Source of the DNA: a virus
Lineage: Duplodnaviria; Caudoviricetes
Virus record (IMG/VR): IMGVR_UViG_3300037589_000201
Span: 1-47,344 of that record
Reading direction: 5' to 3' (one strand)
Length of the DNA: 47,344 nucleotides
Below, in pieces: positions 42,742-43,344 of the stretch; within the stretch, counting starts at the first letter, position 1; the number at the start of each line of letters is the position of its first letter. The notes under the pieces are model-generated. The model had not been told where the DNA came from. It did not search any database and worked only from the letters and a program-made list of their open reading frames with translations. The position numbers and the translations under genes were made by a program.

Positions 42742-43344
42742 ATGGCGATGAGAGTTCAAGGACACACAGTGCCGGGACCGTTTGATACGGCAGAGGAGGC
42801 AGCAGAGAGCCTGGCGAGTTTCTTGAGGGGCCTGATGGTGCCTCCTTCCGGGGTCGAACCGGAACTCCCGAAGGAAACGGATTTTGAGTCCGTCGCGTCT
42901 GCCAATTCCGCCAAGGAGGCCCCGGAGGTAAAGACCTCGGGTAACATTCCGCCCCTTATGCACCGGACGCTGGGAGAGATCAAGCTCCCGTTTGGCTGGG
43001 GCCTGGAGGCGAGGTGTGAAACCCTTTGCCGTGACACTGGGGGTGGTATCCACATGCCCACCTTCAGGCCCGAGTACCAGGTCCGCATCACCTGCGGGGC
43101 CACCGTGGACAACATGACGGGCGACCACATGGCAGGCTGGAACGGTCGCTGGTGGCGGCTCTCCAAGCACATGACGGCGGGGGAGATCGTCCAGACGGTC
43201 TTCAAGGCCACCATGACCGCCCTGGAGCACGAGGCTCGGGAGATGTTCCTATACAAGGGAGTACCGGTGCTCGATCCACACTACGACATCGACAAGCTCG
43301 TGGAGTTCCGCCAGGACCCGTCGAGCATCCTGGGGAGGTCTTGA
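42742..43344 (+). CDS. Phage protein whose ORF spans an antisense tRNA
   Basis: AAGGAG RBS; C-terminal GRWWRLSKHMT..EIVQTVFKA...EHEARE.F.YKG..V.DPH resembles a recurrent phage family; true start uncertain. Confidence 0.75.
   Translation: MAMRVQGHTVPGPFDTAEEAAESLASFLRGLMVPPSGVEPELPKETDFESVASANSAKEAPEVKTSGNIPPLMHRTLGEIKLPFGWGLEARCETLCRDTGGGIHMPTFRPEYQVRITCGATVDNMTGDHMAGWNGRWWRLSKHMTAGEIVQTVFKATMTALEHEAREMFLYKGVPVLDPHYDIDKLVEFRQDPSSILGRS
42836..42920 (-). tRNA. tRNA-Leu(CAA), complete, with encoded CCA
   Basis: GCCTCCT/AGGAGGC acceptor stem, GCG/CGC D arm, ACGGA-CTCAAAA-TCCGT anticodon arm, TCC-TTCG-GGA variable arm, TCCGG-TTCGACC-CCGGA T arm, A-CCA end. Confidence 0.96.
42955..42983 (-). promoter_or_regulatory. 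Putative sigma70 promoter of the nested tRNA
   Basis: Minus strand (C)TTGATC-N17-CATAAG, ending about 35 nt before the tRNA 5' end. Confidence 0.5.

Follow-up and report, generated by a model that had tools for sequence, protein, structure and literature searches.

Genes and Features of the Locus

The DNA analyzed here, referred to as the window, is a single virus record of 47,344 nt that contains both a T7-like RNA polymerase and a tyrosine integrase, the combination that marks temperate phages of the type described by Ford et al. (2021), and it is a T7-like provirus. The RNA polymerase, ∼33% identical to those of LUZ100 and RHEph01, places the element among the Autographiviridae-like temperate phages, and from relatives in Roseibium and Agrobacterium we infer an alphaproteobacterial host. 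The features of the window discussed below are as follows, with P and L numbers denoting retrieved proteins and DNA loci.

74 to 2722, + strand: T7-like single-subunit RNA polymerase (phrog_414, E 3e-216)
40622 to 40990, + strand: winged-HTH transcriptional regulator upstream of the integrase (phrog_9665 and HTH matches)
40995 to 42191, + strand: tyrosine integrase (PF00589 and phrog_1)
42703 to 42713, + strand: copy of the repeated phage motif ACYMTACCACA (repeat family D1)
42734 to 42739, + strand: Shine-Dalgarno (SD) sequence AAGGAG, 8 nt before ATG 42748 (-8.3 kcal/mol)
42748 to 43344, + strand: likely gene of 198 amino acids with a variable N terminus, a linker antisense to the tRNA (residues 31-58), and a phrog_1540 domain
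42836 to 42920, - strand: complete phage tRNA-Leu(CAA), 85 nt with CCA (ARAGORN, Rfam, paired cloverleaf)
42922 to 42957, + strand: segment between the tRNA and Met-71, predicted first β-strand of the folded domain (model; alignment pattern of P0001, P0003, P0005, P0006, and P0007)
42958 to 43344, + strand: phrog_1540 domain (E 1.7e-15), with ATG 42958 as a rival internal start (128-residue database call P0002)
42983 to 42955, - strand: candidate host promoter for the tRNA, TTGATC-N17-CATAAG, 34 nt ahead of it (from the sequence)
44472 to 44524, + strand: 3' half of the host tRNA-Leu(CAA) starting at the anticodon-loop core CTCAAAA, probable attR (match to the intact gene; Roseibium architecture)

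The motif ACYMTACCACA, a copy of which had been predicted upstream of the reading frame and is indeed present at 42703-42713, has 19 matches in the window compared with 1.84 expected, 16 of them on the + strand (sites 3397-42713), and is a likely candidate for a phage promoter or operator. The sites lie mostly upstream of SD sites on the + strand, the reverse complement of the motif resembles an extended -10 box, and the linker peptides TLPHY and GLYHG of relatives look like translations of this same motif at the DNA level. Elsewhere in the window two 63-nt tandem repeats, 94% alike, lie inside a probable tail gene (29283-29408), and a lipoprotein-like gene (43574-43969; PF25682/phrog_478, labeled RDF in PHROGs) is ∼80% identical in DNA sequence to a gene of Rhizobium phage 16-3.

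The tRNA-Leu(CAA)

The sole tRNA called by ARAGORN in the whole window is the tRNA-Leu(CAA) at 42836-42920 on the - strand, as predicted from the letters, and it has the cloverleaf, long variable arm, CAA anticodon, A discriminator, and CCA of a class II tRNA-Leu. Its description as perfectly foldable agrees with a match to RF00005 of 53 bits (gathering threshold 29, E 7.6e-10) in which every stem is paired; a scan of the entire window against Rfam at the gathering threshold returned no match. All pairs of the cloverleaf (100%) are kept in a comparison of six phage copies, and 13 of the 23 pairs show compensatory change.

The leader signals proposed with the tRNA hold in part. The element TTGATC-N17-CATAAG is present but matches only four of six positions in each box and is absent from the promoter-scan calls, and the putative leader hairpin does have a 5-bp stem. 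Many relatives have the peptide LYHGLxYPRK after the tRNA, and in L010 the antisense of this stretch reads TTGCGT-N18-TAGAGG and ends 12 nt before the tRNA, which would fit a candidate promoter; alphaproteobacterial promoters often lack the last T. A conserved insert of ∼24 amino acids (YPxxxGVSPMxxADxxWQMG) stands directly after the tRNA peptide in P0001, P0007, P0009, P0011, P0017, P0026, and P0027. The insert accompanies two different domain lineages and is missing from the window, where an in-frame deletion has removed it; DNA encoding it was looked for and not found. It could reflect an RNA element conserved within the leader of the tRNA.

The Probable Integration Site and the Split Host tRNA

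The original prediction overlooked a second tRNA sequence at 44472-44524, which is the 3' half alone of a tRNA-Leu(CAA) and differs from the phage tRNA at 9 of 53 positions. In the likely source run, exactly this half occurs on a contig directly behind a normal 5' half, which identifies the copy in the window as the 3' part displaced from an intact gene. The window holds only attR, with attL outside the record. In a related prophage of Roseibium sediminis attL consists of the 5' half, after which come phage DNA and the polymerase gene, and attR holds the 3' half. Neither Roseibium half alone gives a tRNA, joined they give tRNA-Leu(CAA), and no other intact copy of tRNA-Leu(CAA) was found in the Roseibium draft genome. 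The phage copy most likely replaces the host tRNA split by integration, because in the Roseibium lysogen that tRNA is broken at the anticodon loop and left unrepaired. L113 likewise has the attR half, and in the window, the Roseibium locus L022, and L113 the anticodon of the phage tRNA is that of the att half gene (CAA in both).

The view that T7-like phages rarely carry tRNAs does not apply to the temperate ones. All 10 of the Rhizobium phages and prophages in Ford et al. (PMC8631192) have a tRNA-Leu, and LUZ100 also has one (PMC10134795). The same replacement logic, with an intergenic tRNA, is described by Ford et al. for Rhizobium T7-like phages.

Just past attR lies a gene for a KAP-family P-loop NTPase (44880-47087). 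Its GC content is lower, TTG is abundant in it (24% of Leu codons), and it possibly belongs to a defense or genomic island that uses this tRNA site. At the Roseibium tRNA-Leu site a second integrase element is found right past attR (L022 3571-4941; L091 1501-1541). L095 has a related integrase beside a - strand tRNA-Arg(ACG) (5381-5457) with no tRNA-Leu within 13 kb and may be an island of non-phage origin with an integrase of the same family.

The Reading Frame across the tRNA

The + strand frame at 42742-43344 runs for 200 codons without a stop, and the predicted tRNA-antisense peptide is part of its translation, as the original prediction had it. The AAGGAG sequence is a strong ribosome-binding site as claimed, but it fits ATG 42748 (8 nt, -8.3 kcal/mol) and not 42742 (2 nt, -2.4 kcal/mol), and the closest relative, P0001, starts MRVQGH, matching ATG 42748. 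Because the spacing and strength of the SD sequence and the P0001 start favor this codon, it is probably the start, and the protein is taken as 198 amino acids. A second SD-like site (-6.9) lies ahead of ATG 42835/GTG 42838. The score of the first 29 codons falls between those of coding and non-coding sequence, with 2.8% of in-frame windows scoring lower and 3.0% of off-frame windows scoring higher.

In the AlphaFold model of the 198-residue protein the tRNA peptide is disordered (pLDDT <50), which is consistent with its proposed role as a linker, and a β-strand (residues 61-64, pLDDT ∼95) is placed ahead of Met-71. The 128-residue part modeled alone has a pLDDT of 94.

The phage-like C-terminal domain noticed originally belongs to phrog_1540. 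A search with a profile in which the tRNA peptide was included found 2552 representatives at E ≤ 0.001, and most members are stand-alone proteins of 120-160 amino acids. The full model has the order β-α-β-β-β-α, and in a Foldseek search with it HPF-family chains appear among the top rows at E 0.009-0.03, below threshold, with no PDB match at E ≤ 0.001. No HPF rows are returned for the 128-residue model and no Pfam HPF match is found in 105 phrog_1540 members. The likeness of fold to the HPF/RaiA/pY ribosome hibernation factors is weak and seen in the long model only. P0036, P0041, and P0042 combine the domain with additional modules (PF00075, PF15891, and PF04957 in precomputed Pfam annotation).

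Predicted Read-through in Related Proteins and Loci

The tRNA peptide was found in 28 of the 172 retrieved proteins (27 by pattern and 1 by eye). It is in frame in 12 of the 16 clusters from the whole-ORF search and in 12 of 21 longer proteins found with a domain-only profile, although protein searches reveal in-frame cases only and are biased toward read-through. In the window's clade (SH-aLRT 97, quick tree) the peptide is present in nine of ten rows, the tenth being the window's own short call, and eight short relatives in a second tRNA clade (P0046, P0047, P0049, P0052, P0053, P0059, P0157, and P0164) are seen as proteins only. Four Leu anticodons occur in the family, CAA, TAA, and CAG from the peptide (CAG inferred from the peptide letters) and TAG in L010. 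With four near-duplicates excluded, the linker between the tRNA peptide and the domain in the remaining 24 proteins takes 19 lengths from 23 to 106 amino acids, all stop-free and in frame.

Ahead of the tRNA the sequences diverge, with 27 N termini (23 from proteins and 4 from DNA loci) falling into 21 unrelated groups. Two have a DnaJ-like CxxCxGxG motif below the cut-off, paired Cys motifs are present in P0031/P0035, and N termini are shared by P0030/P0032 and by P0004/P0006. P0001 and P0017 are near-identical from the tRNA onward with unrelated N termini that switch at the tRNA edge, which suggests that the tRNA may also act as a recombination joint. P0026 starts at the tRNA edge.

An open frame through the tRNA is in itself no evidence of translation, because host and intergenic Leu tRNAs are also stop-free in the same antisense frame. 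The start signals were compared in five loci found without using the tRNA, through domain, integrase, or RNA polymerase queries. Domain-only scans gave 82 loci, two with an antisense tRNA-Leu upstream of the domain and both of these in frame, and L088, L104, and L113 came from scans with the integrase and polymerase. In four of the five the frame crosses the entire tRNA from an ATG whose SD sequence scores -8.3 to -11.2 kcal/mol, and all four starts overlap the upstream stop codon. Of the six DNA loci of the clade, five have an ATG with a strong SD sequence and a single frame spanning the complete tRNA. The tRNA of L104 is shorter by one base and still leaves the frame open, and both L088 and L104 read through without the domain to give unrelated 68-residue products. 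L113 is a counter-example, where the coupled upstream ORF runs into the tRNA in a different frame and meets a stop codon within it. A start of this kind occurs in 2.8% (0.028) of the non-coding frames of the window, giving P ∼3e-6 for four of five, and a generous null of 1/3 gives P 0.045; the loci are related, so both values overstate their independence.

Among the outgroup phages with a tRNA before the integrase (L109, RHEph01, RHEph21, TRX32-1, and LUZ100) none of the five has a read-through start that strong, the best having SD values of -7.5 and -6.7 at the tRNA edge, and the four cultured phages have a separate SD sequence for the integrase after the tRNA. In RHEph01 (L097 3003-3087), which has a GTG with an SD of -6.7 at the tRNA edge, and in TRX32-1 (L099 3002-3086) the antisense tRNA shares the frame of the integrase, which is not so in RHEph21; the arrangement is possibly an intermediate state.

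Alternative Explanations

The comparison of relatives supports the claim of dual-coding DNA, as the frame, the start signals, and the fusion are kept across divergent sequences. We regard it as probable that the locus is a real case of tRNA/protein dual coding, with the replacement tRNA antisense in a gene translated through from ATG 42748.

An explanation that overlaps this one, the sole difference being what is selected, is that ribosomes cross the tRNA but the product hardly matters, with translation preventing polarity or tRNA/mRNA pairing and coupling the downstream genes, and initiation maybe split between 42748 and ATG 42835/GTG 42838. The unrelated domain-less products of L088 and L104, the unrelated N termini, the SD-like site before 42835/42838, and the start of P0026 at the tRNA edge all agree with this. 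However, some of the N termini look like real modules, as with the Cys motifs of P0031/P0035 and the sequences shared by P0030/P0032 and P0004/P0006, and the domain is strongly conserved, and we consider an irrelevant product rather unlikely.

It is less likely again that the tRNA is effectively intergenic, with the domain gene starting downstream at ATG 42958 and the long ORF a shadow left open by inheritance or chance. The tRNA is intergenic in known relatives, its antisense is open by nature, L113 has no read-through in this frame, the 128-residue part folds alone in the model, and shorter database calls begin downstream (P0002, 128 amino acids; P0019; P0020; P0045), with WP_284765082.1 called at 171 amino acids. 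In addition, 12 of 26 aligned rows have a Met within four residues of the Met-71 column, and L010 has an internal ATG with an SD of -7.6. Against this, there is no SD sequence at ATG 42958 or at the in-frame downstream starts of L022 (best -3.0), and the methionine is not conserved, the Met-71 column in 26 rows containing 17 Leu, 5 Met, 2 Ile, 1 His, and 1 Val. Of the 74 tRNA-less homologues, only 3 start no more than three residues from this column. The 19 linker lengths, every one stop-free and in frame, and the SD-led, stop-coupled upstream starts in four of five unbiased loci also argue against an intergenic tRNA.

Phage tRNAs commonly tune decoding or offset a host anticodon nuclease. That the tRNA here tunes Leu decoding in lytic growth or counters such a nuclease, with no role in integration, is very improbable even given how common these roles are and the four Leu anticodons of the family, as TTG makes up just 5.3% of Leu codons (35 of 664) across 14 phage ORFs and codon supply is therefore a poor explanation, the phage tRNA and the att half gene share their anticodon in the window, Roseibium, and L113, and the same replacement logic is described for the Rhizobium phages.

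Discussion

In SSV1-type archaeal integrases attP lies within the integrase gene and a tRNA-derived stretch is translated; these differ from the window in that a partial tRNA serves as attP. The integration-dependent immunity of actinobacteriophages (PMC5559632) is similar in having the attP core in a translated phage gene, with attB mostly overlapping tRNA genes. There only a core of 20-40 bp is involved, which recombines and is cut on integration, whereas here a complete 85-nt tRNA outside the att site is present. The window was rejected as a case of that system, with the att site 1.5 kb from the ORF at 44472 and the ORF intact in the prophage.

Closer parallels are found among temperate T7-like phages. 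According to PMC8631192, Paadamvirus prophages (vB_RleA_TRX32-1, RHEph01, and RHEph21) integrate inside a host tRNA-Leu and carry a whole replacement tRNA-Leu on the strand opposite the phage genes. Their tRNA (TAG) sits between the regulator and the integrase, the upstream ORF ends within the first four codons, and the integrase follows directly with its own SD sequence, unlike the window, where the tRNA lies after the integrase and wholly in an ORF. Membership of the window in Paadamvirus was rejected on the 12-bp core CAGATTTAGGTT in tRNA-Leu(TAG) compared with CTCAAAA here, the position of the tRNA after the integrase, and an RNA polymerase only ∼33% identical. Pseudomonas phage LUZ100 is likewise T7-like with an antisense tRNA-Leu beside the regulator and integrase, which its authors interpret as a relic of imprecise excision (PMC10134795); this tRNA (TAA) lies between genes and has stops in the frame of the integrase, unlike the tRNA of the window. 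The present arrangement resembles the published replacement-tRNA system in its working but has the tRNA wholly inside a gene likely translated across it, and no report of such a placement came up in searches of the open-access literature.

Prophage integration would split the host tRNA-Leu(CAA) at the anticodon loop, and the phage would supply a whole replacement that keeps the lysogen stocked. The tRNA would be transcribed on the - strand from a host promoter within the downstream coding region, and the + strand gene translated across it from ATG 42748, so that both products may be made. The 28 antisense codons would form a tolerated disordered linker with a sequence dictated by the tRNA. The overlap may be possible because the antisense of a Leu tRNA is naturally stop-free in this frame, and selection would keep the frame because the downstream domain, lacking an independent start signal in both the window and L022, would otherwise go untranslated. 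A further, tentative proposal is that the essential replacement tRNA also serves as a conserved in-frame recombination joint at which phages exchange unrelated N termini, Leu anticodons, and domain lineages, much as a shuffling linker within a protein family would. In the lysogen the tRNA would in addition be a perfect 85-nt antisense to the mRNA of the gene, and the domain might bind ribosomes in the manner of HPF.

In annotation practice a CDS covering a tRNA is treated as an error, and here the database calls were cut to begin after the tRNA (P0002 and WP_284765082.1). Roseibium sediminis KCTC 52373 is a cultured and sequenced lysogen in which the arrangement can be tested directly. If the translation is true, a whole tRNA, probably needed by the lysogen, and a protein would come from the same bases on opposite strands, and the overlap would span four anticodons and ∼20 unrelated N termini. 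The family would then be a natural system for the constraints of RNA structure versus protein coding and for gene fusion driven by a tRNA, and the replacement tRNA may tie the host to its prophage.
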